From Trichoplax sp. H2 (taxonomy: Eukaryota): a DNA stretch of 64,000 bases. A program made the translations under genes and the position numbers. Below are positions 22,601 to 62,388 of the stretch, piece by piece (within the stretch, counting starts at the first letter, position 1; each line of letters begins with the position of its first letter). The notes beneath the pieces were generated by a model. The model made no database searches. It was not told where the DNA came from and saw only the letters and a list, made by a program, of their open reading frames with translations. The stretch lies in assembly GCA_003344405.1 (NCBI GenBank), contig NOWV01000110.1, positions 1 through 64,000 of the forward strand, read 5' to 3'.

Positions 22601-23355
22601 TAATTACTATTCGCAATAAAAACTTTTGAGTGGGTTGTTATATTCGTTATTAGTGCCGTTAAATATCACAACTATAAGATCCAAAATAGAAGAGTGCCAA
22701 ACCTCATCAAGCTGTCATCTAAATTACAGATTTCATGAAAAAAAGTGTAAGTTAATATTATAAGCAAATAAAACTGGCTAGAGATATGTGAATTTTCTGT
22801 ATAGCAAATCAAAAATTTTTATAAATTACTTCTTTTTCAGTTTGCAAGCCGTCGAAGTGTCGACTTTGGCCACTATCGAGCATGAACGTATCCAGCAATT
22901 CAAGCAGCAATGGTCACTGCGGTTAGTTGTTTCGTCCGATGATGGACTGATACATATATTTCATTTAAGTTATTACAAATAGCTTGACTGGAATTTACAC
23001 GGCTTGACATTTGCAACGATGGTTTTATCCTTTGAGATACCAACTATCATGTATTCTAGCACTTTAGATGCCAATAATGATAAGAACGTACATCAAGTAA
23101 AATCATAATTTTCTTCTAACTAATTCTTTCTAATGGTGTCCTAAGTAGAAACTTAAATTGACTTAACATTAGTAGTAAAATGGACTAGAATTCACATTGG
23201 ATAAGTATTCTAAGCTGAGAACTACTACATTAATCAATTTGCTTAGTTAAACTGCCGTGTATATATGGCTGTTCATGTTCTATGGCGGAAATGAAATGCA
23301 CAAGCAGGAAATTCAGTAAAATGATTAATAATTTCATGATACCATATCAATATGT
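19613..23355 (+). CDS. LRR-GPCR N-terminal exons: signal peptide, LDLa, linker, LRRNT
   Basis: 19613-19679 MPEKMPSYRVLLYIFILTPLIN(G); 20777-20881 SQTVKCGNSSQDISARSICDCVDNCRNKFDEINC (LDLa-like, phase 1-1); 22841-22921 CKPSKCRLWPLSSMNVSSNSSSNGHC (phase 1-1); 23247-23355 KLPCIYGCSCSMAEMKCTSRKF... (LRRNT, phase 1-2). Confidence 0.72.
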
Positions 23356-26300
23356 GTAAGTAAAATTATCTCATTATACTGCTAATATTATTCCTAATTA
23401 ACAATTATTGGAAATGTATTGCAGTCTGTTTCTTGATTCAGTAAAAAAAGGCAGTTTTGGTATAACTCTATAATACAGTAAATTAAATAATGTAATCAAC
23501 GTGCGACTATGAAATCAGACCTAGATTTTGAGTCATTCGATAGTACTTCCTAATTTAACACCTTTATTGCTCGATGTAACTTAACTTAGTATTAAATATA
23601 GACTACCAGCTATATCTTTCTATGATGTATTATGTCCTATCGTAGCTTACTTTATTTGTCATAAGTTATTATTAGTAGATTATAACGATAATCTGTAAAT
23701 ATAGATTTTATATTGGAATATAGATGGTCATGTACATGGTACAGTATGGTGCTGAATTATAGCTGATACTAAATATAAAAATAGATGCATAACTCAAATA
23801 TAGGGGTAGGGGTAGTTTATCTTACTATGGCTAATCGTAAAACATAGTTACATAAATATTGTAGCTGTTACCATAATAAATTGAAAAATGATTTGCTATA
23901 GAGTATGTTACTAACGTTAACTTGAATATATAAAATTTCAGGAAGAATGTTGCTTACTGATTGTACTAGCAGATACTACGAAAACTGTTTAAGCAGATAA
24001 TCGTAGATAATTCAGTAATTCTTCCTGAAAGTCTTTCTCGTAGTTACATTTGGCTAAAGTAGAGCTGTATATAGAATATCTTTGTATAAAGACTTAATAT
24101 AGTTCTTATTTTCGTGACCTGTTATATGAAGCATGGAAGTTTAGTTTAACATTCTGCAATATATTCTGTAATTTCGGATTAACTACTGTGTGTTAATGTG
24201 TAATGGCTAGATTTAAGCAATTACTAACTGTTTTAGTTGAAGCTATTTTAACTAAGTTAGTCTAAAAATTGACTGATTTATGTCTTTAAAATCATGTAAT
24301 TGAACATGATATAGCTGAATCGTGCCAAAAATTACCTTATCACGACCATAATTAAGACGTTAAAAATAGCAATCAAGTAAATCTGATCTTTAGATATTCT
24401 ATATTTCACTTAATCCTATTAAAACTAAATGCTAATTTTAAATATAATAATCATTTATAACTTAAATTATTCGTACGTTTGAACATTATTAAATTTGATG
24501 TTGAATTTCTTTGTTACGAAATGGTATTTTCCGTTAATTCATGACTACTAATGAATTATTTTAGGAACCTAAAGGGCTCTTCCGCCGCCATATTTACGAT
24601 TGATACATCCATCCCTCAGCCATGGATTTATTCAATGTATGTTCTAATTACTTCAACGATTAATTAGTTATCGAAGTATTGGTTAAAATGATTTACTCTA
24701 TTGTTGTAAAATCAATGTAAAACTAGTACTCACAGTTCGGTATCACTTGAGTAAATGCATAAGCCGGTTAAATTTGCAGCTAAGTATATTTATGCTGATA
24801 AAGTTCAAATTTGTATCCATATTTAATATATTTCGAATGAGAGAAGATCGCCCATTTAGTGATAAATAAGATTGTTGGAGCTATTCAATTTAAAATGCTA
24901 GTTCGATATCATGTTCAAATTTACCATATAATATGTATTGCAACGGTTTATAACAACATTTAACGGACAATTCGATAGTATTAATAAGGTTATCGCTCTG
25001 GGAAATCAGATTTAAATACTTTTTTATAGTAAGTACTAGTAAAGCTTCAATGGCCGGATATGCAAATATTAATTAATCATATTTTGATGTAGTAAGTTTT
25101 ATTGAATATCCATCAGTTCTTATACTTAATTTTATGCTTTTCATTCAAGTACTTTCAACAATCAGCTGATGAGCGAAAACTTCGGCCCAAAAGTTTTGAT
25201 TAATCTTCCAAACTTGTTGCAATTGTGAGTAATTATACATACCTATTAATGCTTAAAATCATTTGTAAATAATTGCTCTCCTGAGAAAATAGCACTGTAG
25301 CTTTCCATTACTACTGCTATAGTAAATAAATTAAAATACTGCAGCGAAAATAGTATAGTTTCGTTTGCATTCTAATATTATTTCTGCAATGTTATTATTA
25401 GAGCGTAAGTAAATTACCAGTATTACATGCTAATAGCATGCCTCCTGAATAATTATTGGAAGGATAATAAACTATTTTAAAATGAATGCATAATGACGCA
25501 TTTTAAAGAGAAAATAACAGTGACTTAAATTGATTTATAAACTTTGCTAGGAATTTAAGAAGCAATCAGTTAACCCATATCCAAGACAAAACATTTCAAT
25601 CTTTGAAAAAAATGGAGCATTTGTAATTGCATCTACAATATCAATTTATTAATCATGCAAAGTCAAATCTTGTTATATTTGTTAGATAATGAGCCTAGAA
25701 TATTTAATATTGCTAATTTTAAGAATGAAATTTTGACTGGGATTAAACTTCATAAATCATTATATTAGGAGCTTACAGAACAACAGCATTGTAATTATTG
25801 AAGAAAATGCTTTCCTTGGATTGACAAATCTGAAAATATTGTAATTAAATACTTTTTCCGTGTTCTAATAGAATCATATACACAATGCTATACTTTACAA
25901 ATGTGATAGAGATACTGTAAATAGTATACATCATATTGTAATTTTAATATAATGCGTATAATATCTTAAGTCATCAATGCAATTTATTTTAGAAATAACT
26001 TCTAATCGCAAATACCTGCAAAATTACTATATGTGATAATATTCCGTGTGACTTATGAATAAGTCTTATGTTAAAATCGAATTTGTGATTACTAGCAATT
26101 ACTCCATAATTTACCAAAGAAAATTGATAATCTTTCCATGCTAAATTTAATAATCGACCGTAGTTAACAGTACTCTAGATCAATTTATATTTGAAATATT
26201 AGTATTTGTATGCCTTTTTAAGTATAAATGCTGACATTGATTGGAAATTTTGTCATTAATGCCATCATTGTGTAATATGAAAGGTCCTAACTTTTCTTTG

Positions 26301-29300
26301 CCAATTATTCCATGACATTTAGATGTTTAAACGATAATCCTATTCCTAATCTATCAATGAGAGTCTTCAAACCAGTGCCAAGTTTAAAATACCTGTATGT
26401 TGCAACAATTGTTTTATTTTAATTATCAATAAATCGATAGCTTAGGAAAATAGAAAGAAAAGACAGCCAAAATAATCCATTTTATAATTTAAAAAGATAT
26501 AGCAAATTTCAATAGTGTATCACTCCTGCTATACTAATCTTTACAAATAATTATGATACTGTTACTAAATCGCAGTTTTTTAAGTGATCTAAGCGCATAA
26601 TTGTTTAGCTATTTTCAGTAAATAACTATTTCTGTAGGGTTAGATGACTTCAGTATTTCTTATTCGGTTTCAATGTCTTCAATAGGAGTATTGCATCGGC
26701 ATATTTGAAAGAATTGAGCTGTACATCCCTACATGCGCCTGGCTTACTGCAACTGTATGTGTAATAGCTTGATAAATATCTAAATTTTTCGATGTATATT
26801 CTAATTAAAGAATTTAAGATGTCTATATTACTGTCACGACTTAACTCTTATTAACAGCTTTAAAATAGATTTAAAGTTACCGTAGTTTCTTTGTTCACTC
26901 CTAATATTAATTATGTGTGACTTACTTGTACTGTAAATATAAATTTAATTATGGAGACATTGGCATTTAATCAGTCCTTATAAAGTGACTATGTTGCTAC
27001 CTGATTCATAAAAAATTAATACGCATGCAACTTTATATTAATACTGAGGCCATCTAAGTTCCAATAATCAAAAATTATTTAAAATCCGTAAAGTGCATGA
27101 AATGCCTAGTCAATCTTGGAATATGCGAAATAGCTGCCGAAATAGTTACTTTAGTAATACAGTAGTAGCAAGCTCTGCTCCATATATATCTCCGTGACAG
27201 TACTGATACTCATTAAGAAAAACTGAATAATTTTAAAATACTGGATTGCAGTGTGTCCGTCCGTAGACAAATCTTTTTAGTATAACCGATACTTTGCCTT
27301 TAAGTCCAAATTTCTATCATAAGAGATCGTATCATAATCTATTTGTCTCAATTACTATATAAGAATTTTATGACAGTACTAAAAAGATTCATTGTAGTAA
27401 TTTATGACCAAAGTGATATCTATTACAAATACTTATTAGCTCTAAATACTATGAACGTAAAATTTTCTAAATTTAGCTATTTCATCTTCTTAGCAGTTTT
27501 CACCTGTCACTTGCTTATTTTATAAAATCTAATTCAAGTTTTTCTGACCTTTGTTAGTCTAAATTACTTAAAAAATGAGCATGATCAGAAATCAAATTAT
27601 AACTTTTAGCTTTATTTGTAAACAAATCGAGTTGAATACGTTAAAAGAACATTATTAATTAAACATACAGTACATTTTTTTAGTGCAAAATTAATCAGTT
27701 TTTATATCTAATCCCACAATTGGAAAATTATCGGCAATTACCCAACCGTAGCGATGAGTTCTTGAGACTTACATGAAATCTGTTTGAAGATTCATTATAT
27801 TATTAGTTCACAAAGTAATAATTAAAACCTTATCGAAAACATTTAACAATCCTGATTCTTTTTTTAGGCATCTTTATAACTTAAAAATTCAAAGAATTGG
27901 ACATGGAACATTTAATAAATCAGGCTCCATAGTTCTTTTGTGAGTGTCGTAGCGTTGTACAATGTACTATCAAGATTAGAGTAGAAATATCGATGTTAGA
28001 ATAATTTTGTTGGCTTACCTTTATTTAGTGAGTTTCTAATTAAAATATATGATGCTTAAATATAGCACCAGCTTTTATGGCAGCGATATATAACACAACA
28101 TATAAACATACAATGAAATTAATAGTTAAATTGGGAATCGAGAATGATCTACTTACAATTCAAATCACTACGATTGTATGATACTTATATTGAATAGTAG
28201 ATTATCGTGAAAATATTCTGTGATAGGATATATCGTAATTTGACTACTTTGTATTAGTCATTAGACGTCTATATTCGTACATAGTGTTGTCTTTATTAGG
28301 TAGAAGTAAGTAAAATTAGATTTTGATTCATTGCAAGGTTCAATGTTAATATTCCTAACTAAGATGTCTGAACTATCGCAAAAGAGTATACTCGTGCTAA
28401 TGCGGTATACCGTATAATAAAATTAACTCTTAAAATTAGTATTTAAAGCAAAATACGAGGCGTTCAAGTCTGTGTAGTCTACTAGTATTGGAAAGGTGTT
28501 CTTGATGGAGTATGCATTACTCCCTGATACATGGTTCAGAGAGTCGACTTATTGATCGTACATTACGTTACCTTACCTTGTTGCAATGCTGTTTAGTACC
28601 AGTGAAATAATAAATAATCATTAAATTAGTAAAAATATCAAAGCTAACCTAATTACTTAAGAGATGTCAAAATCATTTGTATTTACATAAGATTTTCTGT
28701 TAAATTCCATCAGAGATCTGATGAGGAACCAGATTCGATCCATTGCTCCGCGTACATTTGATGGTTTAAATAGTTTAAAGATGTTGTAAGCATTATCAAT
28801 CAGCTCTAAATTAAATATAAATATCTGCGGTTTTGTTAATTCAAAAATATAGCGAATAATTACTTTTTATATTTCTTGTGGGTATTGTGTCAATCAACAA
28901 GTAGTATATCAGCTATATTTTTAACTTCGGCTTGATATAGACAAGGTTAAACTTATATCCATGTATTGGGATATTTAAAATTGCTTATTGATTTTTTATA
29001 CTTGCGTGATTCTTAATATTTTGATTATGTTCAATACAAAATATTGAAATACTAACGTTGTTTAATTTTTTAATAGATTTTTAGATTATAATCCGATCGC
29101 AATAATACCTTCGAAAATTTTATCAGCAATGCCCCTCCTTGAAACCTTGTAAATAATAATTTAAATTATTAACTGTTTAATCTTAATGTAATTTCAGAAT
29201 TAAATTTCCTTTCTATCAACATTCACGATTTAGTACCAGTTCAAAAACTATGGGTCTTTCAATGGAAAGGCATGCTTTCCGAAAGCAATATTATTTGAAA

Positions 29301-32300
29301 GAGATGTAAGCTTTGCTTTTAGATTTTTTAATTAAGTATATTCGCGGTTATCTAAGGAAATACCGGAATTTCTAATTGCAAAGTGTCCATGTCGAGTATA
29401 GTAATTAATAAGAAATGTGAGTAATATTAGCTCATTGCTGCAAATAAACACTTTTCAGCCGGAAATTTCGGCTTCTTTGGTATTAGCATTCCGTTTGCAT
29501 ACACGATATTAGGACCTTGCAGTAATTTGAAATGTTACAAAAAATTTAATATAAATTAAGAATATTAAAATTGAATATATTAAATTCAGTTGTGATACAG
29601 CAACTATGAAATGAGGCATAACTACGAATCTGAAAGTTCACACTAAAGAACTAACTAAACATGATAGTTTAATTGCATTGTTTAATGTTATTTCAATCCA
29701 ATAGATATTTAGGCTTTTCAAATTATCGAAGTATTGGGTGTGAAACCTTTTCTCAATTACCCAGAATTAGCCTTTTGTAAGAAATCTTTTATTCGGTCTA
29801 ATTATAGATAATATTATAAAACTGAATCCTAATTCAATTTATTTAGATACCTAAATTCGGGTATAATATCTCATATTTGCGATGAAGCATTTAGGGACCT
29901 TAGGCACCTTTCTATCTTGTAATATGGCTAGTAAATGTTATGCAAACATATTAGCGAGACCACTAACGTGATAAATTTGATTTCATACGGTAATCGATGC
30001 AATTCAAGTTTCTTACTGCTTGTCTTAAATATTAAACAGAAATTTAGGAAGCAATAGACTGAAGCATTTAAGCGAATACACTTTTTCTGGGCTCGCATCA
30101 TTAAAGATTTTGTAAGGAGATTATTTGGCTGTTATAGCATTCTTCGTTAGGATCAGACTATTAACCTTTTAAGTACTTTACAGTACTATGGCAACATAAC
30201 GTGACCATCACTGTTTTTTTTCGATTAATTAATCTAACCACTGTAATGAATTCATTATTTAATTAAATTATGGAAAGTAAAACACTTAACACCTCTTGCC
30301 ATGGACTACTAGATAAATGGAATATCTTGAATCGAGTGGTCCATGGCTACACAGTATCATTGGTGACTTTACATCGGTGAAAAGTGAACAAGGGAATCTT
30401 GAAGCTATCATCTTCGCCATTCACTTGTCCACTTTTTCTTTCGCTTCAGTTACAGTACTGAAAGACGGAGATCGTAATCTTCTCTGTCTCGATCGTGCCC
30501 GTAGTTGTAGTTCCCTCCTCTCTCTCTCTCTTTGATTTACTTAGGCCAATAAAGCTTCTTTTCTTCGGGAACAATTGTGTCTCTTGTCGACAGTCTAAAA
30601 CCCAGAACGTGAATGCAGTAATGTAGAACTACACGACAGCAGGTCTATTGTAGAGGTCTATTCCTTTCCGTGTTGAACGATCCGCTAACGTTGGTAACCG
30701 GTTGGAAACCAGTGATGCTATCAGTAGCAGCTGTTAACATCGCCACTAGTATCGTCGTATTTATTAACCTCCATAGTAGTCAAACGATTAAAGCCACGCT
30801 GCATAATAAGCGTTAACAGGACAGCACTAGTGCAAGTACTTGTGTACAGAACGCGAATGCTAAATCATACTACTGTACACTTCATGCTTTTACCAGTAAA
30901 GCAAAGCATCGCGATGCGTATACGAGCCCTTTATTTGTTTGCTATTCGTCAACTCCGTCGACTACTGCAAGTACTTCTGTACAGAACGCGAATGCTAAAT
31001 CATACTACACTCCTTGCTTTTACCAGTAAAGCAAAGCATCGAGATGAGCATGTGAGCGCTTTATTTGTTTGCTTTTCCTCCACTCCGTCGACTACTGCTT
31101 CTACTGTTGAGCACGAGCTGTGCCAGTTAGGATCGATTCAAGTTGCAACCAGTGTTTTAAATTGACAAAAATTTTTAATAATCGCACGTCGTTTAATTTA
31201 TAAAGCAAATTAATTTTTCAAACTATTACCCACTCTTCACCCAATAACACAAACTAAGTTTAAAATACTAAAATCTTAAAAATATTAGCAAAAGCAGATG
31301 TATTAATTAGTAAAAATTCAAAAAATTGGTTAATACTTTCAATACTGATCTTATGATACCGTAGTCTAATTTATTCATCGCCTCTATATAAGTCGTGGCG
31401 GATTTATTGCTTTCCGTAATACCTATAATTTTGCATAGGGAAAATGTAGTGCTATGAATCTTAAATTCATTTTCTACTGTTGCAGCATCTAACACCAAAT
31501 CATCTAGTGTAAAATTATCATTCAAATGTTACGCTAATCTATCAGATTGACCTAATACTACTGCAATTGAATTATTCTTTTATTAGGCGCCTTTTTGCTG
31601 ATATTTTAACTTTAACAATAATTATTGGTTGTAAAAATCTCGCTAAAATTTGAAACCTGAGCATTTATAAATGGGAATGATCTTTGCCGTTCCGCAGTTA
31701 TTTTAGGAATAATGGCTTTATTAAGAGAATATTATTTTAATTTTTCAAATATTTTTCCTTAAAATATAAATTACATTGTCAAGATTCCTAGAGATAGTCT
31801 ATACCGTTAAATTGATGTAAATATGAGTTCTCCAAAGCGTAAATGAACGTTTTATGTTTTTATACTGTATTATTTAAAAAATTACCATACATTTTAATTG
31901 CAAGCATTAATCTGAATATTAATGTAAGATTTAAACATAATCTTGCTTTTATTCTTTGCAGCATGCGCTAATATAAATTAAATTTAAAGTAAATTTGAGC
32001 TTAAGCTTATAATAATTGTTGGTCATTCTCTGTAGGAATTTACAATTGAATTTGCTCGAGCATTTACCAGCTAAAGTTTTCACTTCCGTTCCTGATCTAA
32101 GAATTCTGTAGGCGCTTTCATATTTCCGATACACCTTGTGCTTCATGTAGTCAGTAACATCTTCTAAGCTATTGCAATTTTGAAATTTCTTACTACCTTA
32201 AATCTGTTTACTGTAACTGACAGTACACCAGGAGTAAATAAAAATCAGACTTAACTTATCAAATAAAGCTTTCATGTTTCAGGTCGATTTGATCTACAAA

Positions 32301-35300
32301 AGTAACTGTCTTTCAAATTGTAGATTTATACATAGAAATAATTTTAAAACCATTGATGAAAATATCTGCGATGGTCCTAAATATTTACATTGGATGTGAG
32401 TATGTCGTATTGACAATACCAGTTTGGACTGGCTGATGTATAATAATTGACTTTAAGTTTCCAGACTTTTAAACAAATTCGATTTTAATTTTTGTGTAGG
32501 TAATGCCTAATGTATTTTAATTTAGCGATATTTATATAAATAAATACAGCATATAATGATTTTAGCGTATCTCATATAAACTAGTTATGTTATCACCGCT
32601 CATCAAATTCCTAAATTGTAGAAAATTTGAACATTCTTAGATTTTATACAAGATGGTCTAAATACAGCTCTACTTTAACAAAATGCGTACAAGCACTAGA
32701 AAAGATATTTAGAAATAACAATTGAATTACCTAATGTTGCCTATTTGTGTACTTACCGTTGCTTCTGCAGTCTCGAGCAGTATAGCTGTCATAGCAATAT
32801 ACTACATTATTTCACAATTATTCAAGTTATAGTTATCAATATTTACCGGCCATGTACTGCGAAGGATCATTTACAAAAAATGTTATTGTAGCAGCGACAA
32901 TATTTATGTAGATATTGTTTCCGACCAGTTACAGTACGATGAACTATTTATATACTAACGTAGAAGTTGTGCATCTATCTTTACTTTTAGCATTAAATAA
33001 TGATTCGGCACCTAACGAGCTGTATACCGTCATCTGCACTTTAAAATAGAATCTACATTTATAGTCTATTTTCTACAAATTACTAAATACGCCTGACGAT
33101 ATAATATCGTAAGCTTAGGTACCATACATCGAAATAGCCATGACTATTAATTTACAATTCAATACGACGTCACATCACAATTGGCTTTAATTTTATAAAT
33201 ATTCATTATAAAATAATCTTTGCAAACAGATTTACATACTAATTTTTATTACAGAGCCCTGTTTGCTAATCAAATAGAATCACTTAATGTCCAAGCTTTA
33301 AAGGGTTGCTCCAAAACTATACAAAATTTGTAAGAAATTTATAAAACATGACTCTTTCATTATATACTAATTGAAATAGGTATCATACATCTGATTAAAT
33401 ATAACAATTGATCAATCTTACGGTACGATAATGAGCTAATAAGCAATCAAAATATTACGACTTAACTTTAAACCAAATAAACTTAGAGATTTAGATGCCA
33501 ATATAATCCGGTATATCAATACATCAGATTTTTCAATTTTTCCTAAATTGAAAAAACTGTAAGTCAATTATCGTAAGTTACCAAGAAATTTAATTTAAAT
33601 TACTATTGTTTTCATGCAATATATACGTCATACTATAGACGCTTATATTTGATTGCATGACATAAACCGTTAACTTTCGCTTTAAAGGCACTGACTTTTG
33701 CTCCTGATTAATATCGTGTAGTACTTCTTATATTAAGATCTTAAAACTTTACTCGAATGATCGATAGTTACTCAGTAACTATAATAAAGAATTAAAGATG
33801 GATTCCTTAATGATCTATCTTATAAAAATATAGTAGATGAACATAAACAGTAGCATCGAAAGAATTGATAATTTTTTAAATCTTGTTAAAACATGAAGCT
33901 GCCATCTTTTCTTCATTAATTTCGAAGGTTTTGTATAAAACACTACATAAAATTTTCGAATTGCTTTTTATAATACACTAAAATGTACTGTAAGGTTGTG
34001 CTGGTTTGCAGAATTAGCATGTAATACGATAATTTTCCTTTTGATATACTGCATCCTATGCAGAAATTTTGTACGGTTGCAAAGTCAGTAACCGTCTAAT
34101 TTTAAGGATGGGTATATAATGGCTTTTATAGCCTAATAACCAATACACGTTAATATGATTACAATATCTAATTATACTGCAGGTAATTCTAATATGCTGC
34201 ACAGTATTACTATAAAATTTGAACTACAAAATACAGATTACAGTTCGTGTAAGATGCAACATGCCTTAACATAATTCTTACTATCTAACGAAGAATTAGT
34301 TTCAGTCACAATTAAATAACCAGTTATTGTAAGTAATTTTACTTCTTCGGCAAGCAATAAAATTCTGATATAATAACATTGCTATAAGTTTTCAACAATA
34401 TCATTTTTTGATAACGATAGTCGTTTCTTCTAAATTTACCTTTAAGACATTTTAAATATTGTTAGATGGATTTTAACGGTAGCTGTAGGCATTTTAATTT
34501 TTACTATTTTAGAAATATTGTGAGTTGGCAAGCTCAATCCTTTATTATTTATGTGATTATAGATGATAAAATGCCAGGATATAGTTCAACCTTAGTAGGT
34601 TTTCCTTTGTTTCTCATTGACTAATTAAATATCTTGTCATAACTATGCCGTTATAGAAACTTAGGTTTTAATCCAATCGAAAAATTAGAATCTGCGCCGA
34701 ATGTAAAATCTTTATATGAGTTTGAAACCTTGTAAGAGACTAAGATAAATAATGATATTATTATTAGCTAAAATTTAAAGTGAACCTTGATTTTTCGTGT
34801 TCTAATCTATCGTGCGGTACTATGGAAATCCGGATAAGGAAGTAATGTTGCACCTGCCCTTTATTGAGATTGATCAATTTGCTAAATTGCGTATAAAAGT
34901 AGTATAATCTGATAAAATAGACTTGCACATGCTTAGTTTGTGAGGAGCTAGCAAAGTATGGCATCACTAAATCAATCCTGGCAATTTTTACTAGTGTTGT
35001 TCACGTTTATATCTATAGAATGAAAGAGAAATTATAATAGAATCGATCGATTATTAGTGTTTCGCTGATGTTTTTTGCCATGTATTTGGATTGTACTGTA
35101 ACTGTAATCTACTCTTAAACATAGACATTTTGTATTGCTATTAAATACAGACACATTTACAGTCTGTTCGCTCTACATTCAAATATGGCTTACTACATTT
35201 AGTTATTACAGTCCTCGCTATTTTCTACAATCAACTGCTATTCTATAACCTGTTATGGTATATGTTGTATCTAATCCTACAATCATGTTCTCTGCATGTG

Positions 35301-44300: not shown

Positions 44301-47300
44301 TTGAAATACGATGCTAATAAACAAATAGTGAATTTTTAGTACATGCAAAAAATTAGAAATTCATTACATCTTTGCGCAAAATATGCAGTACTACGCGCAG
44401 CCCTGCTCTTATCCGATTGTTACTTAACTAAACTTGCCTAATCTAAACTAATTTAGATTACCCTAGATAAGTAACAATGACTGAGAAATACACTTTCAGA
44501 ATCTTCTAACTATATCTTTATTCTAGAAAATGCAAGTCTAATTTAATATTCAAAATCAATCATTTAAATAGCTTTTCGAGGCATTAAACCGGTTTACGAT
44601 GTGTGATATATTTCGACCAGTAAGACTTCGAGAATACATTAAATTATTCCTAGTCTAATCTAGTGAATTTGTAATATTACTACACATTAACTTTATGTTT
44701 GCCCTAGCTTATAATTAACGGGATTTATATTGAATTTGCCATTAGCAATTCATTTACCATATTTAGTATAATTTAACCTGTATTAGGAACAGGTTTATAT
44801 CGGCTATATTAAGTCATCAAATAATTCATGCACATATCCAAATTAATAACTATCTAAACGTGATACATAAACATGTCTAAATTAAGTAAGTTATCATTCA
44901 TCACGGTAGATTCACTACCGTGACACCGATACACTCACTTGAAGATCTGAAAATGAATTACCAATCATCTGAACTTGTATGCGTATAGATTTTCCGTAGA
45001 ATCTGCGGTCACAATCAATTATACATTAAAATCTGTTCTTATACTACGAATACAATTTTCGCGTTGACTCTTCGCAGAAACTTAAATCCCCTTAAATTTT
45101 ACCCTAACAACTAAAAAATTGATTTGGTTCATTATCTATCGCGCTTTTATATTCTTCGGCAGCAGGCAACATTGATGAGTTATCGTAATATTCTAATAGT
45201 TAATTTATACTTTATAACTAAATGAAGATAGAAATATTTATAGTTGTGATATATACCGATCACGAAATTCCAAATTTTAGAAAAATAAGGGCTTTATTGA
45301 ATCTTATACAAAGATTAACTACACACAGCTTTACTCTAGCCCAATACTACTTCTAAAGACTTCTACAACGAAGTAACTGAATAATCTAAGGCTGCATGCT
45401 TTTATACTTTTCGTAGCATTTGCAGCTACTATCCGAAGGGCAACCTTTTACCTTACTTTATACATAGTAAAATTATTCTTGGTAACACTATTCTACTGCG
45501 GACCATCATTAATCCGATATGGATACGACTACAGTATTTACGTAGACATTATTCACACTAGCCAAAGTACAATGAATTAACCATATCCTAATATATGATT
45601 TACAGTTCTGTTTTTACCTATAGCCTTATTAGTAACTTAACACCTTACTGTATATAGTCATCTGTACTCTAGCATAGAGTCTATACTACTACAGTCTATA
45701 GTTATAGCTACTAAATATCTCTTAGGATAAATATCTACCGTACATTATACTAAACATAGCTAACAGTCTACAATCACAATACCAAGTTACATTGCAATAG
45801 TCAAGGACATCTACCGACTAATTCTAGATAACTGGAAATGAGTATGTGTATTCACAGAATCATTTGCAGTATGACGTATTAATTATCGGTCGTCAGGAGG
45901 ATTTCTATTACAAGAATTAGAAATATAATCAATTAAGGCCAATTGCTATATAAAATTCTTGTTACAGTACAATTTATAATTTATTACAACAATTAATTGC
46001 AAATAACGTTTGAAATGTTGAATTCACTAAATTTGTGATATAATTCTTTACGGTACCAGCAGTTGATACTGTGACAATACCGCCAATTACATCCTAAATC
46101 CAAATGAGTTCGAGTTTAAAATCCAGTGTGTTCTGCCATGATAGCATCTTTCTAAACTTTAACTTATAAGCGGATTGCGATTTGTTCTAGTTATACTCAA
46201 ATTTTAAATTTCTAATGTAGCAAAGCTTAATAAAATTTTGGAAATCAACTGCGTATAATCTTATTTAAAATGAATGCATTAACTTTGACAGGCATTTGCA
46301 TAACAATTACATCTCCAAAATCGATGATAGATTCTTCACTGCCTTTCGGTCCGTCATTGAAGTGTAAGTAAAAATTATTCTATAGCAAACAAGCTCAATA
46401 AATGTGAGAAGAATATATTCAGACTCATCTGTGCTTGGCTACTATGCATACTTGAGTACCTGCATTTAAAACAAAGAAATTATCTGTTTTAAAACAAAGA
46501 CAACACTTTCGTTAATACTTATATCTCCAGGAAACTGCAATTCAATCGTTTGCAATTTCTTCCTTCTCATGTCTGCACAGGAACGCAAATAAAATTTTTG
46601 TAAGTAACTATATTTCGGTATTCATTAATAATCATTAATAAATCAGTAAAATCTGAAAACTTATTCATTGTATATAAAATCAGTAATGCAGGCCATAATC
46701 TTATCCAATCTATCAATCGCAAACAATTCAGAGAATGCAAAATATTGCAGGAATTGTAAGTATTTCGATGAAGCAGTGATCTGTACTACATACCTGATTC
46801 GCAATTATGCAGATGTAACGATCATATGTAGGAATTTTATTTATATGTAATAAGAAGTGAAGCTCCTCATAATGCAAACGAGCTTATTACTCATATTCTT
46901 ATTACTGTTATGTTTTAGTTTAATGCATGTAGTGAATATTGATTTATTGCTTTTAGTTTTAAAGCAAAGTACAATATGGTTCTCCTTAATATTGTACACA
47001 AATAATAAAAAGCCACTAAAAAAACGAAGCGTTGGCTTGCAATATATTTAAATCAGATTTTCCTACAATATTGTCATAATAGCTTAATATCAGTAAAAGA
47101 AATCATTTATAATTAGTAACAGCTAGTTAGGGTGATGATAGGTTATGGAAAATACAATAGCATTATCAGATATATGACACTAAAATAATTCTTCTAGAGC
47201 TGTAAGCAACGTGATTGAGGTGACGTGATTTAATTAAAACTTTCGTTCAGTCTTACTTTCGATAGCATAAATATTGAAATTTATTAACTAGATACTCGTA

Positions 47301-50300
47301 TATCGCCATAAGCGTATACCCTAGGTCGAAATAAATAGATAGCGTCCGAAAATTTAAGTAGCTTTAATAATTAAGTTGGCAAAATCTTGCCTTGTCATTT
47401 AGGTCAAAAATTACCTGTTGTGTTAAGAACAAAATATAGATCACAGTAAAATAAATCAATTTTTGATGTCTGCATATAATTTACACAATATTAGAGATTT
47501 GAGTGCCAATAGGATATCAGAGCTGCCAACGAATGTGTTTATGGACCTGATTGCCTTAGAAAGGATGTAAGTCCATCTGTATTTTTAGACAAATATTTCA
47601 GGTCTTTCTTTTTATTATACAGCAAACTATCATTTTGCATTATAAATAATTCGACATAAGAAACATTATTATAAATATGCGTTATCGCCTTTTAGTAAAG
47701 CTTTTGAGAACTGATAGCAAATTGATAGCACCTTTTGCCTGCTTAGAATCACTGATTTGATCCAAAATAGCTGAACAAGCTAACTTAGACAGTCATCATT
47801 TAGTTATTATGATTATAAGAACACAGCATTACTATACTAAGGATCAGTTCGAAGCCGGTTCGCAGCATGTGGTAATAAATGCTTGCGATTTTTAACTTGC
47901 GTTGTATTAACATCTTTCTATTTTTAACTGACAAAAGCTAATTTACTTTCTTTAATATACTCATAATATTGCATAATAAAGTACTGTAGCCTTTAATTTT
48001 TGGTTGTAATCAGTAGCGCATGCATTAAAATAAAATGTGATTGGATGACCGATGGTAAATCCAACCTATATGTTGTAAAGGACTTGCATTGCTATAACGC
48101 ATTGGTTGGCATAGAAATTTATTCTGTAACAAAGAAAAATGAAAATAATAATTTACTATTAAATTAATCACTGATTAGCAATACAGCAGAACTTTTAGTT
48201 ATTACGTATCTAATAAAAACTGTACATTGACTAAACAGTCTCGCCAATCAAGCTATGTCCCAAAGGGACGTTAAACTTCACCTAAATTTGTCAAATATTA
48301 ATCTTGCCACAGCACTAGCAATGGCTTTGATTTAATGTCTGCTAACTAACCTAAACTCTAATTCCGTTTTACAATCAAATAGAAATCTGAATAATAATCA
48401 ACTAGAATATCTTGGCGCTCATCTTTTCCCTCCCAATTCCCCATTGCAATCTGTGTAATTAAGCTACTTCGATTCGAAATATAAAATACATTACCTATAC
48501 TATAACTTTGAAAGGCACAGTTCGATATTTAATTAGTGTAACTCGGAATTATTTATTATTGAAATAGGAGATTTATGAATAACAAAATATCCAAAATCGA
48601 CAAAGAAGTGCTTGGTGTAGATTCCATTGCTCATACTCTGTAAAAATTAATTATTAACAAACTACCTTATGTCCGATACCTAATGAGAATCGTAAAGAAC
48701 AAGTATGCAAAAAGATGATTATTCTCTGTTTTATTGCTTTTTAGCACATTAAGTGGTAATAATCTAAATGAGATTCCGGTTCAGCTATTTACAAATACCC
48801 CGCGTCTCATAAACCTGTAAGGCGAAGAATAAATAGCGAAGTTAAATGATTGTGCTAAGATTATTTACCTAAAACTTCATACTATGGTTTTTCTAGGAAT
48901 ATATTTTTGATTTGATTTTAACTACATGATAAAAACTTTTACTCTACTTTATCTTATATAATTTAGTTGCAATCTAACAATTTGTAATAATTCTACAAAA
49001 CATCATTAGATTAGAATACTATTTCAAGATTTAACCATTGGATTTGTATATGTTTAAAAACTATGTTGGTATTTTATAGTAGTTAAATGGTCATAAAATT
49101 TTAATTCTGAGAAAATTTATAGATGTCATTTTATCGCTTATTCAGGGAGTTAGATCGTAATAAAATTGAAGTAATTCCCGATTTTGCTTTTGTTGGAGTT
49201 AGTCTTATCGAATATTTGTAAGTATCCTACAAAGCATAGAAAACCAAAGCACAAATTACGCTATTGATAATAACGACACCATTTACCATATCTGTAGGAC
49301 AATGCTTAATATTTTGGCATCGTTATGACTTGATCCAAAATCTATTTAATGTCTTTCATAATTCAAAGTAAAGAGAATAATTTCCATAAAATTTAAAAAT
49401 AATTTCTAAATAAAAGCTGTATATTTAATATTTCTTCTGCAGGAATTTAAGTAATAATAATATTTCTTCTATCGTAAAGAATACCTTTGCTGGCTTGTCT
49501 CATATACTGGCACTGTAAGTTCAATAATGATACAACTACTTATTTGCATTTTAATTAAACGTAAATTAATAGCAACTGTTCATTACTTTTATTAGTTATC
49601 TTAACAACCTACCAAAACTAAAGTATCTAGAAATGGAAACATTTACTGAAATGAATTCGCTTGTTGGCTTGTAAGGCATACAAATTTCTCTTTGCTACTC
49701 GATAAATATAATATCATAGCCATAATTCCAATTGAATTTTATTCACAATTTGATAATTCACCTATAAACCTTCACCTACTGTACATCTTGAGCTTTTGAG
49801 TTGCTATAAATTCATCCAAAGCTAGCCTTGCAAGGAGAAATATACCAAACCAATGCTTTTAGTTTACGGATATTTGAGGAAACTACTCATCCTTCTAATT
49901 GCAATTTTGTAGCGACTTTTTACACTTATTTGTTTCTACATTAACTAAAATTTGACTGGAAGACGTATTACAAATTGACGAACTCTTGCACTCCGTCGTA
50001 GTAGCCAAAAGTAGTGATATCTCTACTTTACCTATAAGTTGAAGTCGCGAAATTTAAGCTCAGTTACATAATTAAAGTTGAAATATTTAAATGTAAAAGT
50101 TTAATAATGAATCCATGATAGCTGCATTACAGTGTCTTGTTTATAGAATCATTTCTGCAATAAAATTCTTTACAATCTAGCTACTAAGTTAAGCAACTAC
50201 ATTATGGAGATGGGAATAGGAATTTTTGTCTATGTTAGAATAATTTGATTAAGCTTAACCTTACTTAGTCAATTTCTAGTATTAATACATAGTATCATGT

Positions 50301-53300
50301 TTTATTACTATACCGACTATTGTGAGATAGCAGTACTAAAATTGATATTTATATGAAGAAGCTGAGAACAATCTTTTGATAGTTTGAATAACTGTGATTG
50401 AATTGATTTATGAGAGATTGTTGATTAATTTAAGAATATTCTGTGTGTCGGTAATGCAATTTGACTACCTTGTAATAGTCATTGGACATCTTTACTGATA
50501 AAGACTACTGTCTTCATCAGCTACCTAAATCACTATGTAATCCACTAGAAGGTTTCGATACTAGTAATGCAACTACTTAGCTTAAACTACGAAGCGTCAA
50601 GTTCTATCTGATATTTGGTTTAGGAACATACCAAATAGATCGTAAATTGTGTTACTGTTAATAGCTGATATGCTGGATTTACAGTAGCATTACTAGACCG
50701 TAAAGGCAATTTCTGTAACAAATCTACAATTAGAATTACAAGCGTAAGGCCTTATACTATTCTTATTGTCTTTTATTTACCATATAGTAACTAAATTATG
50801 TGCTATACAATTTGTTATAGTTTTTTTTATAGTTACAATGGCTCCTGCTTAAAAGTATTCGATCTCAATCACTTGACATGAATATTAAATTTATTAAATT
50901 TTGCAAACTACCTTTAATAGCCCTTTGTACCGTTATAGAATAAGAAATTATAATTCTGGTTAGAACTTAGAAGTAAAGAGAAGATATTTTCGACGTGATT
51001 ATATTGATTTCATAAACTAGATCTTTGCAATATTGTGTCCTCAATGCTTCCTTTGTAAATCAACTGATCCATTATTTGCCAGGCATATATGATTTGTGAG
51101 TGAAAAGAAAATAATAACGAATTTTTGCCAATAAGAGTTTGTAGAAACGCTAATTTTATGATATAGAACAATAATGAAGTAAACATTTGGAGTTATTTGA
51201 AGCACTCGTGTCAGTTACTGCATTAGAATTAGTAGACAATGTCAATGTAGAAATTAAATTGGTGATGAGTATTCTTATATTAAAGTTACTTTATTACAGC
51301 TTACTTGCAATAAAACACTAATCCGACAAGTCTAGATTAAGCAAATTCTGGCATTGTAGATTTATTTTTCAGCATACTAATGAAAACTGCAACAGGTGTA
51401 GATTACAACTACTTTATCACTAATGTTAGTCTTGTCATTCAAGACCAGTTAAACAACAAACAATTTTACTATCATATATTAGAACAGTATCGAGAACAGA
51501 GAACCAAATATCAACTACTAAACTTATGCTGTAATTTATATGCGGACTTTATATACTCCCACTTAGCCAGCGACAGTGCACACGAAATCATAATTAATAC
51601 AAAATTAGATTAATGTAATTTAGCATCCCTACTGACTATACCTTAGCAGATAGCATAAATTACTTTTATGTATATCAAAACTTATGATTAACCAACTAAT
51701 TATCCGTAGCTCAGTACTTTACGATAGGAAAGTATACAGTAAGCATAAGATAAGTATGCATTACCAGATATTGTCTGCATAGTTGCAAGAGTTGCAAGAT
51801 GAACAGCAGCTTTAGTAAATAAAACTAAAATAAATTATAGCATTGATTACGGCGTTAGAGTACCTGACTCTGTAACATACCTTTCCTAGTTGTAACTTAC
51901 ATTTTCTAGCTTACAACAACATAAATACATGAAATTGGTTTTTGAGAAGTAAATCGTCTTTTTCAGATCACTTGATGGTAATAACTTAATTGGTCTTAGA
52001 AAAGACTTTGTTGAAAAATTGTACCGTTTAGATGACGTGTACGTACGAGTATAAGTTTTATTTTAAGAAACAGATCAAAAGATTGTTATTTTCTAAAGTC
52101 GGAAATAATTAACGAATGTATGATCTTATCAATTAAGTTTTTCCATACTTTGGTAATCATTAATTAGGACATTAGGTTACACTCGCCTTTCTAGTAATGA
52201 TATTTTTGAAATTTTATCAAAAAAGTCTGAATATACAAAGCTGTAAGTTGTTGTCGATATTTTTATATAACTTGGTAAAACATATCGTAGAATATCTTCT
52301 TTAAAGATTTGATACTACTCGTATTCTCTTAGCGCATAGAAGAGGCTATGAGAGCTATATGGAACTATAGCTAGTTTACAGTCGATGTTATTACTACGAG
52401 TAGACATATGAAATGTTTGATATATAATTATAATTTGAAAATTTTGAGTTTATTTGACGTTTTACAGTAAACTACATTATCTCATAGACATAAGTTACTC
52501 TTAGATACAATTTTTATAAATAGATAACTACTCTTAAATTAATAGCGGAATTAATGTCTGCTTTTGTATCATCGTTTTAGCGTACTGGATGGTCTTCAAC
52601 TGCGTTCGTTCCCTCCAAAATTACTACCTTACATACGCTCCGTAATAACTCTGTATGTGTACTTAAATTAGTGCATAATCTTCGTTCACTACAATTTATG
52701 GTAGACGTCGAAAGTCTAACGCGACGGGAATAGTCAATTTTAGAAGTTTCATTGAAACATAATTTTATCTGCCAGGATTGTAAGGAAATAATTTCTTCCT
52801 AATCAATTATTAGGAGTTTAAAAGACAATCTCATCCAGTCTCTGGATGAAAGATTTATCAAGCTGCTAAATCTGGTATCGCATCTGTATGTTACTACTGT
52901 TTTTACATTATTAAATTACCGTCATCTATTCACTAAGACAGGCAGTGCATGCTAAAGTTTAATAAATTACATTTAAACTGTACTAGCCCGCTCATCTATT
53001 ATTCTGTTATTATAAGTTCAACTTTTAAAATAGCCTTACAGACATTTAAATTTTACTTTTTATCTTGAATCTACAATAAATGTCTTGTAGGTTTACTTGT
53101 CATTAATATATACTAGTAAGTTATTAAATCATTTAATAGCGGTACATGTTTCAAAAATTTGATAAATTTCAATTAGCATCGGTTCTATCCAACAATTATA
53201 TATCGATACTTGACTATCCCTAGTGTAATTCCCACACTGAACAGCTGAAGTACACCAAATTATTGCCTAGATTTAGAAACCATGAAATATAAAATTAATT

Positions 53301-56300
53301 TAATCATAGCTTACATTTTTAGCTTAAAGTTCTAAAATATGAATTACTACTTCTGTTATCTAGTTCCATATTAATCCTTCCATTTTCCTATCTTAAATCG
53401 ATCAGTATATCTTAACACACATATGTGGAATGTATCTTTGACTCAACTTTGATCTTAAATAGAATATTTCTAAAAATACTCTTCTACTACATCTTATTGA
53501 AGCTCATATTCATAGGAACGCCCCCCCCCCTCAAAGAAATAATTGCCATTTCATAATAATGAACTATAACAAAACATAATCAGAAACATGTCGAAGTAAA
53601 TCAGCTTCTTTTAATTACAGGAATCTAGCCAACAATCAATTAGGAAACGAAGACTATTCTAAATTGAAATATGTTCGAAGTTTGAAATCTGTGTATGTAT
53701 CATAACTTAACTTACGAACTACTACCCGAAAGTAATAGATTACTTATTATCTCCACTACACCTGGAGGCCTACTGTGTGGTGTTCTATACTACTTGCGGC
53801 CACATAGGAATAAGACCGTTCTAAGAGTTTACTATAGTTGTATTAATAGAGTATTCGAAACGCTATCTAATCACGAACTGAGAAGCTGAGCATTCACTCC
53901 TCCTTTTATACCCTACCACCACACTTGTGGTGCACACATAGTAATTTAGTAACATAATATTTACATGGTTCGTATAGAAAAACAATCCTCAATAGCTATA
54001 TAGTTCACTATAAGTACAACTAGTAAACAATTTTAATTGGCAATAACTAATAAATAGCGAAAGAAACGAACGAGGCTCTGCATGCTACTCGCACGTTACT
54101 CGCACTTTGCGGCGAGTGCTAAGGTGTGGCCAATATTAGTATCTATAAAGATTATACTAATTGATTTCAGAACACGCTTGCATCTTGGTTGTCTAGCAAA
54201 ACTATACACGATTAATGTTCATAATTACTGCTTGCTGTATTGCTATTAGCTACATGCGAAGCCTACTTAATTAACATGTACAATGCTTAGCTCCGTAACA
54301 GTATGTAACCAATATTTTGACATACTTTCGAATTAGTTTCTTATTGCAATAGTTATGAAAATAATTAATTTTTATTAACGCAATTATTCATTTAGACTGC
54401 TGTAGAATCAAACTTGGAGTTAATGAAAAAACTGTAATTAATACTGTATGCTTCAAATTCATGCATTGCAGAGACTTATCTTATAACAAAATTAGCAGCG
54501 TTTGTTCCAGTGATATAAACATTAGGACGTGGTTATCATTGGCAATCTTGTAAGGCTGGCACATTCATCTGCTAATAATTTGATTATTTACTTAAAATAA
54601 CATGTGTATTGCTATCTTGGAAATTTTTACCTATTTAGATACCCGATATTTTAGAGTATACCTATTCTTCATGTAAATTCTTTACATGCTTCAACTTCTA
54701 TAAACATAGTTACCCTACGTCCTATCACTTTGTTTCAGAATTTACTTGTTTATTATAGTATTTCTTTAACGGAAATTTAGACAAATTATCATAGCTAATT
54801 TATTTTCCTTAATTAAAAAAATGAAATATGGAACATAGATTTGACTTAGTAAACAAATTATGTATGATTTAAAATCTTGTTATAACAACTAACGAATGAA
54901 CACTGAATTAGTGTTATCTAAATTTTACTGCGAACGAAAACAGGTTATTATTAATCAATAGAGGCAATGAAAAATATCAGTACGTTAACGTTTTACTAGA
55001 TTTTTAATAATTATAATCTATTGCATTCCTGAACAGAAATCTAGAAGGAAATCAAATAAAGACCTTAGATAATTATTGTCTGTCATATTCTCGCAGTTTA
55101 CGAGTTTTGTAAGTTAATTGTGAAATATAGCATATAAGATATAGCAAATAGAAAATAATAGATGTTTTTGGTGTTGTTATTATTTTTTAATCCTAATTAT
55201 ATTAGATACGACAATATTTTCTCAATCTTAATTTAATTCTATAGTAAGTTACGACAAATAATGTCAGAGTACTAAACAAGATGATGCCTATTACTGTCAG
55301 ACTATGATATTTCAATAAAATAACGTTGATTTCTTAATTTTTATGCTATTTATGTCGTTCAGGAATCTACGAAATAATCCATTAATCGAATTTTCTGGAG
55401 ATATTCTGTTAGAAAACTCTGTATTACGAGAAATGTAAGCATATTTATTTACTTACTCTTAGTATATTATTTAGCCAAGTTTGTATCGTGGATTATTTGC
55501 TACGTTTAGCATAGCGATCTACAAATAGTTCAGAAAAATTGCACAGTATGAAGATACTCTACTGAAGTATAAATGATTTTAAGCAATATTATGCTAATAG
55601 TGACATTTACATATGTGCAACTCCTATCTTTAGGCATAGTAGTTTGTTCAGTAGACTAAATATCGGACTGAAAAATGAGTATTTTGCAGCATTAATTATA
55701 ATCGCATTGTATAATAACGGCGACTCTTTCAATTCTATCTCGGCCGAGACTGTTACTTTATAAGAATTAGATTCTTAAATTTTGATCAAATACTTTTGGA
55801 TATATTTATTACAATCCTAAGCCACACAGGTTTAATTATTACGCTCTTTAATATTCAGTATAATCTTGGCAATAGTAGCAGAAAAATTTACTTGATCATT
55901 TTTCTATTAGATACTCAACGCGAGTTTATCTCTGTTGCGTTGTACCATCCTCAGTGACTGTATGTGAGCCTTTTGCAAACCAAATGGAGTTATCTACTTG
56001 TTCAGATCTATTATCCCATGGCCTATTAAGTATTATGATTTGGATTTTTGGCTCTATATCCATTATTGGTAATGTTCTTGCTGCCATATGGGGAATACGA
56101 TCCAAGGATTCTAAACGTCCTATTTCAACGAGACAATTGCTTCATTTGTCGATTGCTGACTCTATCATGGGATTCTACTTAATCGTTATTGCATCAGCTA
56201 ATATTTACTTTGCGGGAGTTTATTCAGAATATCTTGAAGCCTGGTTACGAAGTCCAATGTGTTTATTGGCATCCTTTCTCGTCTCCTTATCTAGTTTTAT

Positions 56301-61811: not shown

Positions 61812-62127
61812 TGTAGCAATTTGTTATTATTTTGTATGACATTACAGATTCATCATTTTAGGGTGTTAGTTGTTATTGTTATTTATTATTGTAAGTTACT
61901 ATCTGTTTAATCTTCGAATAATATTATTGTAAGAGTGATAGTAAAATATCTCACCTAAAGTATATATATATAATCTTTTCAGTTAGACTTTTCACGTTCT
62001 GATTATTCACGACTATCTGTATCTCTTACACGCTTCTCATAAGCTCAATAAAGATAATCTAAGCTCAACTATTATTGAATATGTCTATTGAAAGTCCCTC
62101 ACTAACTACTGAAACTACATCACCACA
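61812..62127 (+). mobile_element. Solo LTR family E (316 bp)
   Basis: TGTAG...CCACA ends; perfect TSD TATTG; TATA run and AATAAA; empty site (tgtatactgaaag) at ~62545. Confidence 0.85.
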
Positions 62128-62160: not shown

Positions 62161-62368
62161 TTATGGTGATTTTGTTAGACACATTGCTTTCTTTAACAAC
62201 TTTTTCCCAAATTTTCGTACCGTATTAACTGAATGATTTTCAAGTAACAGGCAAAATTTTCGAAAATCACTATTGTCACGCTTGTCTCGTAATATGCTTG
62301 AAAGCTCCGCTGCTTTATCTTCTTTATGAATCATGTTTTTAATATCAGTAACCTCTCTGGAACTCAAA
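62161..62368 (-). CDS. Second, gap-truncated copy of the CARD-like exon
   Basis: Same peptide as the 3' part of 62582-62922 with one synonymous SNP; cut off by the N run. May be an allelic or assembly duplicate. Confidence 0.5.
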
Positions 62369-62388
62369 NNNNNNNNNNNNNNNNNNNN
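62369..62388. other. Assembly gap (20 N)
   Basis: Run of n characters. Confidence 1.

Follow-up and report, generated by a model that had tools for sequence, protein, structure and literature searches.

Placozoans are animals with a very simple body in which neurons are absent. The DNA considered here is a stretch of 64,000 nucleotides (nt) of Trichoplax sp. H2 (GenBank assembly GCA_003344405.1, contig NOWV01000110.1, positions 1 to 64,000 of the forward strand), referred to as the window, and most of it is occupied by a gene on the + strand which is predicted to encode a G protein-coupled receptor that contains leucine-rich repeats (LGR). Phase-compatible exons extend this gene from 20777 to 59645, with 62 exons, 6065 nt and 2021 codons closed by a single terminal stop; the other two frames of the joined string, in DNA of 29–33% GC, contain 193 and 174 stops. 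The predicted order of the domains is an LDLa-like module, a Cys-rich LRRNT-like cap, 52 leucine-rich repeats (LRRs), a short Cys hinge, a rhodopsin-type seven-transmembrane domain (7TM) and a kinase-like tail.

An earlier note on this DNA had placed 52 one-LRR exons, all of phase 2-2 and of lengths divisible by 3, between 24565 and 55434, and both its first and its last coordinate proved exact when the exons were recovered by a splice-site census and by LRR scoring. Its proposal that the exons form the ectodomain of a single giant G protein-coupled receptor (GPCR) is supported by the sequence, in which an in-frame chain leads from the LRRNT-like exon through the 52 LRRs to a 7TM whose best match among solved structures is RXFP1 (E 1e-37), and no internal stop divides the array in the 2021 codons that precede the terminal one. 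As regards the extent of the gene, the array stood as described, while at least 3.8 kb upstream and 4.2 kb downstream, the latter with the kinase-like tail, had been missed.

The Array of LRR Exons

The census was motif-free and collected AG...GT windows of 66–81 nt, in multiples of 3, with an open phase-2 frame (one base at the exon start and two at its end) and a donor agreeing with GTAAGT in at least five of six positions. On the + strand between 24.5 and 55.5 kb it returned 53 candidates at 49 loci, against 9–13 in each of the remaining five strand and frame combinations, and the windows of exactly 72 nt numbered 37 in the array frame versus 1–5 elsewhere. Three further exons with weaker donors, starting at 29847, 32036 and 48568, were recovered via LRR scoring, and the array comprises in total 52 AG/GT-bounded exons on the + strand, from 24565 to 55434, each with one 24-residue LRR. 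Their lengths are 72 nt (40 exons), 75 nt (six), 69 nt (three), 78 nt (two) and 81 nt (one); each is stop-free, joined they give 3774 nt with no stop, and phase 2-2 is kept in 52 of 52.

All 52 exons terminate in xT, and at 51 of 51 junctions the codon interrupted by the intron specifies L, I, V or F. The split codon encodes the first Leu of the LxxLxLxxNxL motif, a property that lay outside the selection criteria; since the junction codons are hydrophobic though unselected, they are the best single reason to regard even the unusual-looking exons as genuine. A scaffold score based on seven hydrophobic positions reaches 6–7 out of 7 in 46 of the 52 exons compared with 3 of the 91 chance windows taken from other frames and strands, and it is at least 5 in 51 of 52 versus 22 of the 91 null candidates. 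The ladder position is occupied by Asn in 38 exons and by Cys, Ser or Thr in six more, with none of these four residues in the other eight, and the consensus of the array repeats is a typical 24-residue LRR. The donors are uniformly strong, with A at +3 in 48, G at +5 in 45 and T at +6 in 37 of the 52 exons.

The exons are assigned on four kinds of evidence, namely the AG/GT census, LRR scoring, in-frame joining and the seven-position scaffold score. LRR scoring, census and frame together identify the following exons, all of 72 nt: exons 3 (25551-25622), 4 (25769-25840), 5 (26323-26394), 8 (28714-28785), 9 (29077-29148), 13 (30040-30111), 15 (32324-32395) and 17 (33487-33558); exons 23 (36521-36592), 24 (36835-36906), 25 (37007-37078), 26 (37207-37278) and 27 (37682-37753); exons 31 (41719-41790), 32 (41923-41994), 33 (44123-44194), 34 (46292-46363), 37 (47495-47566) and 38 (48383-48454); exons 40 (48745-48816), 41 (49146-49217), 42 (49443-49514) and 45 (51967-52038); and exons 47 (52581-52652), 48 (52814-52885), 49 (53621-53692), 51 (55037-55108) and 52 (55363-55434). 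LRR scoring and frame alone identify exons 12 (29847-29918, donor GTAATA), 14 (32036-32107, donor GTAGGC) and 39 (48568-48639, donor GTAAAA), each of 72 nt.

Census and frame identify exons 11 (29705-29776), 22 (36296-36367), 30 (41489-41560, with Cys at the Asn position) and 36 (46684-46755), of 72 nt; exons 16 (33255-33329), 18 (34657-34731), 43 (49596-49670) and 46 (52168-52242), of 75 nt; exons 29 (40049-40117) and 35 (46531-46599), of 69 nt; exons 21 (36097-36174) and 50 (54472-54549), of 78 nt; and exon 28 (39844-39924), of 81 nt. Census, frame and scaffold score identify exon 1 (24565-24636, 72 nt), a degenerate LRR, exon 2 (25150-25224, 75 nt), exon 6 (26686-26754, 69 nt), which has no Asn, exon 7 (27868-27939, 72 nt), exon 10 (29234-29305, 72 nt), exon 19 (35548-35619, 72 nt) and the degenerate exons 20 (35720-35791, 72 nt) and 44 (51021-51095, 75 nt).

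A search for internal LRR caps within the array found none. In particular, exons 29 and 30 were considered as an LRRCT/LRRNT pair dividing the ectodomain and this was rejected, because both, once placed in register, are ordinary LRRs whose Asn position is taken by Cys. Additional LRR exons between the LRRNT-like cap and exon 1 were likewise rejected, as just two open windows are present there and neither is an LRR.

The Hinge and the 7TM

Exon 53 (55911-56974, +; 1064 nt), recognised through Pfam, homology, its phase-2 acceptor and the chain, contains the hinge and the whole rhodopsin-type 7TM; its phase-2 junction with exon 52 has an Ile codon. The hinge, which is short, has four Cys arranged as CC-x9-C-x12-C; the 7TM matches Pfam 7tm_1 with E 1.5e-24 and carries all three class A activation motifs, DRY, CWxP and NPxxY. 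Among solved structures, RXFP1 is followed by TSHR (1.5e-27), FSHR (7e-26) and LHCGR (1.3e-20), with other GPCRs at 3e-12 or weaker. The proteins nearest to the 7TM are GRL101-like proteins of Trichoplax sp. H2 (59% identity) and T. adhaerens (51–56%), and the next named matches after Trichoplax are frog relaxin-receptor-like proteins with 28% identity. A metagenome scan with the 7TM as query retrieved no relative.

The similarity to Trichoplax proteins extends beyond the membrane domain. The hinge aligns with the hinges of Trichoplax P0001 and P0002, the last LRRs of P0001 align to exons 49–52, and the last LRRs and hinge of the Trichoplax GRL101-like proteins align with exons 49–53; moreover, in Trichoplax sp. 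H2 P0025 the LRR part of 858 residues is colinear over its whole length with the joined ectodomain (E 1e-36). In the relatives P0001, P0016, P0019 and P0025, LRR_8 and 7tm_1 are found within one protein. On these sequence grounds the gene is an LGR, as indicated by the LGR-like 7TM, the LRRs upstream in frame, the class A motifs and the one-LRR-per-exon organisation, and, judged from its best matches, it is a member of the placozoan LGR radiation, the closest matches being placozoan LGRs with a similar hinge and a high LRR number.

The Kinase-Like Tail

Downstream of the 7TM, all on the + strand, a phase-compatible chain leads through exon 54 (57110-57180, phase 1 to 0) to exon 55 (57589-57812), which encodes an N-lobe-like part and is supported by the chain and by tblastn to the tails of P0002 (E 1.4e-10), P0164 and P0001. 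Exon 56 (57974-58166) contains the catalytic-loop region and is recognised by tblastn to P0164 (E 4e-14) and by a sub-threshold match to Pfam Pkinase; exon 57 (59116-59358), assigned by the tail alignment, the chain and its motif, covers the DFG position, and the last coding exon (59538-59645) ends with the only stop codon of the chain and in tblastn weakly resembles the C-terminus of P0001 (E 0.26). Just 5' of exon 55, at 57540-57600, there is a tandem duplication of about 38 nt that contains the acceptor of this exon, so that by eye two almost identical acceptor sites are available with a spacing of about 38 nt.

The tail exons are homologous to the C-terminal 270–320 residues of P0001, P0002 and P0164, as seen by tblastn (down to 4e-14) and by alignment, and in all three the 7TM and the tail belong to one predicted protein. 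The P0002 and P0164 tails give sub-threshold matches to Pfam Pkinase and PK_Tyr_Ser-Thr, and a profile of the tail alignment retrieves from the PDB protein kinases almost exclusively, the best being CDKL3 and the pseudokinase VRK3 at 6.5e-4. In the ESM Atlas the P0002 tail is grouped with Pkinase clusters, with a feature score of 0.97 and TM 0.53–0.57. The tail carries HGN in place of HRD and GNF in place of DFG, and its aligned N-lobe has no Gly-rich loop; with the catalytic residues changed and this loop absent, it was filed as kinase-like and probably a pseudokinase. Judging from these residues, the tail of the gene is probably kinase-like and inactive.

Word-index protein searches with the P0002 tail and with the tail alignment returned P0002 itself only, and the spread of the tail therefore rests on a hidden Markov model search of a set of 164 proteins. 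In this set the tail profile matches the C-termini behind the 7TM of eight GRL101-like proteins, which belong to hemichordates (P0056 and P0075 of Glandiceps, P0057 and P0041 of Ptychodera, P0108 of Saccoglossus) and echinoderms (P0063 and P0078 of Antedon, P0098 of Holothuria). Pfam gives weak kinase matches at five of the six ambulacrarian tails scanned, and P0056 lies above the curated cut-off. Since the E-values derive from only 164 proteins, the ambulacrarian match is a lead and not a proof of homology.

In the literature searched, no description of a kinase-like tail on LGR or GRL101 receptors was found. The text of PMC9545775, on placozoan LGRs, has no occurrence of the term 'kinase domain', and Veenstra's GRL101 paper, in the part accessible, mentions kinase domains for the insulin RTK only. 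According to the accessible text of PMC12716839, GPCR–kinase fusions in holozoans are confined to choanoflagellates and sponges.

The Upstream End of the Gene

The most upstream exon assigned to the gene is the LDLa-like exon at 20777-20881 (+, phase 1-1), which is supported by splice sites, frame and BLASTP. Its 34 residues match LDLa modules of the GRL101-like proteins P0059 (E 8e-5 and 4e-4) and P0041 (E 0.004); the module is single and degenerate, by eye with an atypical cysteine spacing, and no further LDLa-like motif occurs elsewhere in the window. Two Cys-containing linker exons of phase 1-1 follow on the same strand, at 22654-22746 (in-frame chain, AG/GTAAGT borders) and 22841-22921 (in-frame chain). 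The LRRNT-like cap exon at 23247-23355 (+), with the pattern C-x3-C-x-C-x6-C, enters in phase 1 and leaves in phase 2, and is placed by its sequence and by the stop-free chain into LRR exon 1.

Two candidate start exons were considered. The segment 9153-9213, the sole candidate combining a Met with a hydrophobic stretch, is without support and 11.6 kb upstream of where the assigned exons begin; by eye, a segment from about 20483 to 20591 could also be a Met exon, but its donor is weak and it is not signal-peptide-like.

Age of the Array, Introns and Repeats

The exons had been described in the earlier note as highly divergent from each other, and pairwise comparison of the 40 exons of 72 nt bears this out. 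At the amino-acid level the pairs share 20% on average and 50% at most; at the nucleotide level they share 38% on average, where composition alone predicts 28%, and 57% at most, and identity shows no trend over an exon distance of 1 to 12. The low identity and the lack of a distance trend argue against recent duplication, concerted evolution and an assembly artefact; the exons of the array are old, which fits fixed, individually maintained repeats.

The array introns have a median length of 291 nt, and eight of the 51 exceed 1 kb. Repeats of at least 80 nt in the array are transposon-like only. In particular, two copies of an interspersed repeat (no strand assigned), at 38332-38858 in intron 27 and at 45245-45771 in intron 33, are inverted partners with 527-nt arms that are 95% complementary, and a second inverted pair inside the receptor introns is formed by 28098-28292 and 40810-41004 (195 nt, 76%). 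All four segments are covered by very many contigs in four public sequencing runs, as expected of a multi-copy element. Intron 13 contains, at 30876-31105, a 100-nt direct repeat with 86% identity and a spacing of 130 nt, which sits in the most GC-rich part of the array (30-32 kb bin, GC 0.34) in a window whose GC content is 28–37%; Rfam and tRNA scans of the window gave no matches, this repeat included.

Among the public runs listed as containing the stretch, none is recorded as RNA. The four runs mentioned above, which are smaller ones, were compared with the window over 37001-57000. Among the 15 joints listed, out of 21, none has GT..AG ends or falls at an exon border, and nearly all lie in repeat-bearing intron sequence; contigs of 3273 nt and 1258 nt are colinear through the introns between exons 51, 52 and 53. 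Joints lacking GT..AG and contigs colinear with introns indicate that these runs are DNA or unspliced RNA and are uninformative on splicing or expression. Three other public runs, which contain 78–83% of the words sampled, resemble genome assemblies with about 100–140 million letters.

Neighbouring Loci

A separate gene lies upstream, at 1-6310 on the + strand. It comprises an S/T-rich mucin-like open reading frame (ORF) open from base 1 to 3528, EGF-type exons (EGF_CA, E 4.4e-9, at 5103-5231; FXa_inhibition/EGF at 4689-4955), a weak SEA-like piece at 4399-4629 (E 0.079) and, at 6149-6310, a hydrophobic segment with a basic tail which by eye is membrane-anchor-like.

Beyond the receptor, on the - strand at 62161-62953, a CARD-like ORF occurs twice in near-identical form on the two sides of a 20-N gap (62369-62388), and the + strand segments 61671-61910 and 62413-62565 are likewise duplicated. 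The duplication around the gap is probably an assembly duplication. The ORF matches Pfam CARD with E 1.7e-4 (22 bits, just below the cut-off) and nSTAND_NTPase4 with E 2.8e-4, and may be the start of a STAND/NLR-like gene adjoining the receptor.

Comparison with Known Receptors

The earlier note had regarded the number of LRRs as the unusual feature. The number indeed exceeds the published record, whereas the note had overlooked that a clade of such receptors is already in print. Hauser, Koch and Grimmelikhuijzen (2022; PMC9545775) report that T. adhaerens has 46 LGRs, 41 of which are placozoan-specific and have their own hinge; the placozoan-specific LGRs have 'an unusually high number' of LRRs, with 'as much as 34' in Tadh-LGR-15, while the counts given in this source are 7–9 for type A and C LGRs and 14–18 for type B. 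With this clade described in PMC9545775, the kind of array reported here is known, and the gene belongs to the clade with an LRR count about 1.5-fold the published maximum. It resembles the placozoan-specific LGRs of PMC9545775 in its 7TM, 51–59% identical to Trichoplax models, in its short Cys-rich hinge and in its very long run of LRRs, and differs from them in having 52 LRRs, where the published example has up to 34. An LDLa-like module for placozoan LGRs did not come up in the available portion of this source, and a longer published member, or a published orthologue of the gene, might be among its supplementary accessions.

Several features are shared with the type C LGRs, that is RXFP1/2 and the GRL101 group: RXFP1 is the best solved relative of the 7TM, the nearest proteins bear the NCBI name 'GRL101-like' and each exon encodes one LRR. 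The LDLa-like module N-terminal to the LRRs would be a further resemblance, but it is single, degenerate and below Pfam detection. In contrast, the LRRs number 52, where type C LGRs have about 7–9 according to PMC9545775 and about 6–10 serves as a criterion for type C LGR/GRL101. The ambulacrarian GRL101-like proteins have the same order of LDLa, LRR, 7TM and kinase-like tail; unlike the gene described here, they possess many LDLa, CUB or lectin modules and few LRRs, and some of their tails keep HGD where placozoan tails have HGN or HGS.

The combination of a 7TM and a C-terminal kinase-like domain in one polypeptide recalls the GPCR–kinase fusions (PMC12716839, PMC6033456), namely the GPCR-bigrams of oomycetes and amoebozoans, the GPCR-TKL/K of choanoflagellates and the GPCR-TK of choanoflagellates and sponges. 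The receptor differs from these fusions in that its 7TM is of the rhodopsin-family LGR type and its tail is without the catalytic Asp.

A comparison can also be made with Toll-like receptors (TLRs) and plant BRI1, from which the gene is distinguished by a 7TM and 52 LRRs and with which no homology is claimed beyond the LRR and kinase folds. In TLRs and BRI1 an extended LRR solenoid outside the cell is connected through the membrane with a signalling or kinase-type domain in the cytoplasm; TLRs and LRR receptor kinases have a single-pass anchor and about 20–30 LRRs, and the long LRR array of BRI1 is a superhelix, not a flat horseshoe.

Interpretation and Alternative Explanations

The gene most likely encodes, to judge from frame and homology, a receptor of at least 2021 residues and at least 62 exons that belongs to the placozoan LGR radiation and is of the relaxin-receptor/GRL101 type. 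We consider it probable that the locus is one intact gene whose receptor, with about 52 LRRs, is used constitutively. In the proposed mechanism, the 52 exons would be spliced constitutively to give one uninterrupted LRR solenoid of about 1260 residues. To judge from arrays of 20–25 repeats, as in TLRs and BRI1, such a solenoid would be too long for a flat horseshoe and would wind as a superhelix of more than one turn, roughly two. Along its concave face it would bind an extracellular ligand that is large or multivalent; the hinge would relay the binding to the 7TM, which would signal through G proteins, and the tail would be a non-catalytic docking module. The array itself may have grown via ancient tandem exon duplication and have since been held open by selection.

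A number of points weigh against this explanation. Frame logic and homology are the basis for splicing, for the use of the exons and for joining the array to the 7TM, and the geometry of the solenoid and its ligand are inferred only. Exon 10 has the lowest LRR signal, with a scaffold score of 4 out of 7, and is the least certain exon; given the chance rate of 9–13 candidates per 31 kb in other frames, one or two non-canonical exons could be spurious. At the ends of the gene, the LDLa-like and LRRNT-like exons have no Pfam match, a start codon with a signal peptide was looked for 5' of 20777 and not found, and the match of exon 56 to Pfam Pkinase (E 2.6e-4, 20.9 bits) is below the 31.7-bit cut-off. 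The Trichoplax models used for comparison are mostly N-terminally partial or have their Met in mid-repeat, so that the repeat numbers of the Trichoplax relatives are lower bounds.

A more far-reaching reading by analogy, which we regard as unlikely, sees in the gene an LGR-based receptor for the recognition of patterns or surfaces. A superhelix of two turns, formed by 52 diversified LRRs and linked through a 7TM to a cytoplasmic pseudokinase, would then be functionally similar to TLRs and plant LRR receptor kinases. The plan of LDLa, LRR, 7TM and kinase-like tail, found also in the ambulacrarian GRL101-like proteins, would constitute an ancient, undescribed metazoan architecture, and regulated skipping of symmetric exons could further tune the length of the binding arm.

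A partly relic array is improbable. It would mean that some exons (e.g. 1, 6, 10, 20 and 44, which have no Asn ladder) are decayed or are chance windows, and that the real count is about 45–50 LRRs. The eight exons with none of the four residues at the ladder position, the score of exon 10 and the chance windows found in each other frame of the interval are in its favour; on the other side, the doubtful exons still end in xT with a hydrophobic junction codon, and 51 of 52 exons reach a scaffold score of at least 5, against 22 of the 91 null candidates. Irregular repeats are, besides, common in genuine LRR domains.

The earlier note had also raised the idea of a cassette library, in which the 52 symmetric exons would be used in many combinations by regulated skipping, so that the ectodomains would vary widely in length and surface and could serve to recognise ligands or microbes. 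Placozoans are without canonical TLRs, as far as the available portion of PMC6321704 indicates, which makes another LRR recognition system plausible. Any skip would preserve the frame and the repeat register, since each exon is of phase 2-2, a multiple of 3 in length and one LRR in content, and the repeats are highly divergent at the variable positions. However, one LRR per exon with symmetric phase-2 introns is the ordinary gene plan of (vertebrate) LGRs, so that symmetry in itself does not point to a combinatorial use. The donors, in fact, are near consensus and none is obviously weak save those of exons 12, 14 and 39. Conserved intronic docking or selector elements of the Dscam type were not seen in the 51 introns by scans for 10-mers and for repeats of at least 80 nt: the commonest 10-mer occurs in just seven of the introns and is AT-rich, although short or structured elements could escape such a scan, and the long repeats are the transposon-like ones already described. 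The predicted Trichoplax proteins, finally, have long uninterrupted arrays. Taken together, we give the library little credence relative to a constitutively used receptor.

Two or more transcription units, with an internal promoter or terminator in a large repeat-bearing intron giving an LRR-only protein and a shorter LGR, are also doubtful: introns such as 37754-39843, 40118-41488, 41995-44122 and 44195-46291 could house the boundary, several of those above 1 kb carrying interspersed repeats, and the database models of Trichoplax relatives begin inside the LRRs, but no in-frame stop, terminal exon or Met-plus-signal-peptide exon was seen within the array, the phase is constant and the junction codons are hydrophobic across all the large introns, and the truncated models, labelled partial or with Met in mid-repeat, look like annotation artefacts.

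Significance for Placozoan LGRs

The placozoan LGR repertoire, with its 46 genes, is the largest known according to PMC9545775, and no ligand is known for any of them. Against this background the locus provides the exon-level anatomy of what is possibly the longest placozoan LGR, with 52 LRRs, several-fold the number in any vertebrate LGR. With respect to the literature searched, the new elements are the LDLa-like module and the kinase-like tail on a complete gene, while the array, which is of record size, belongs to a clade already published; the published picture of placozoan LGRs thus appears incomplete at both ends, with the module upstream and the tail downstream.

The symmetric exon array offers a clean test case for the tuning of LRR number by splicing. 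If the kinase-like tail is confirmed, LGRs would be linked to the scattered GPCR–kinase fusions, and if the ambulacrarian and placozoan tails are homologous, a receptor composed of LDLa, LRR, 7TM and kinase-like parts would predate the placozoan–bilaterian split.

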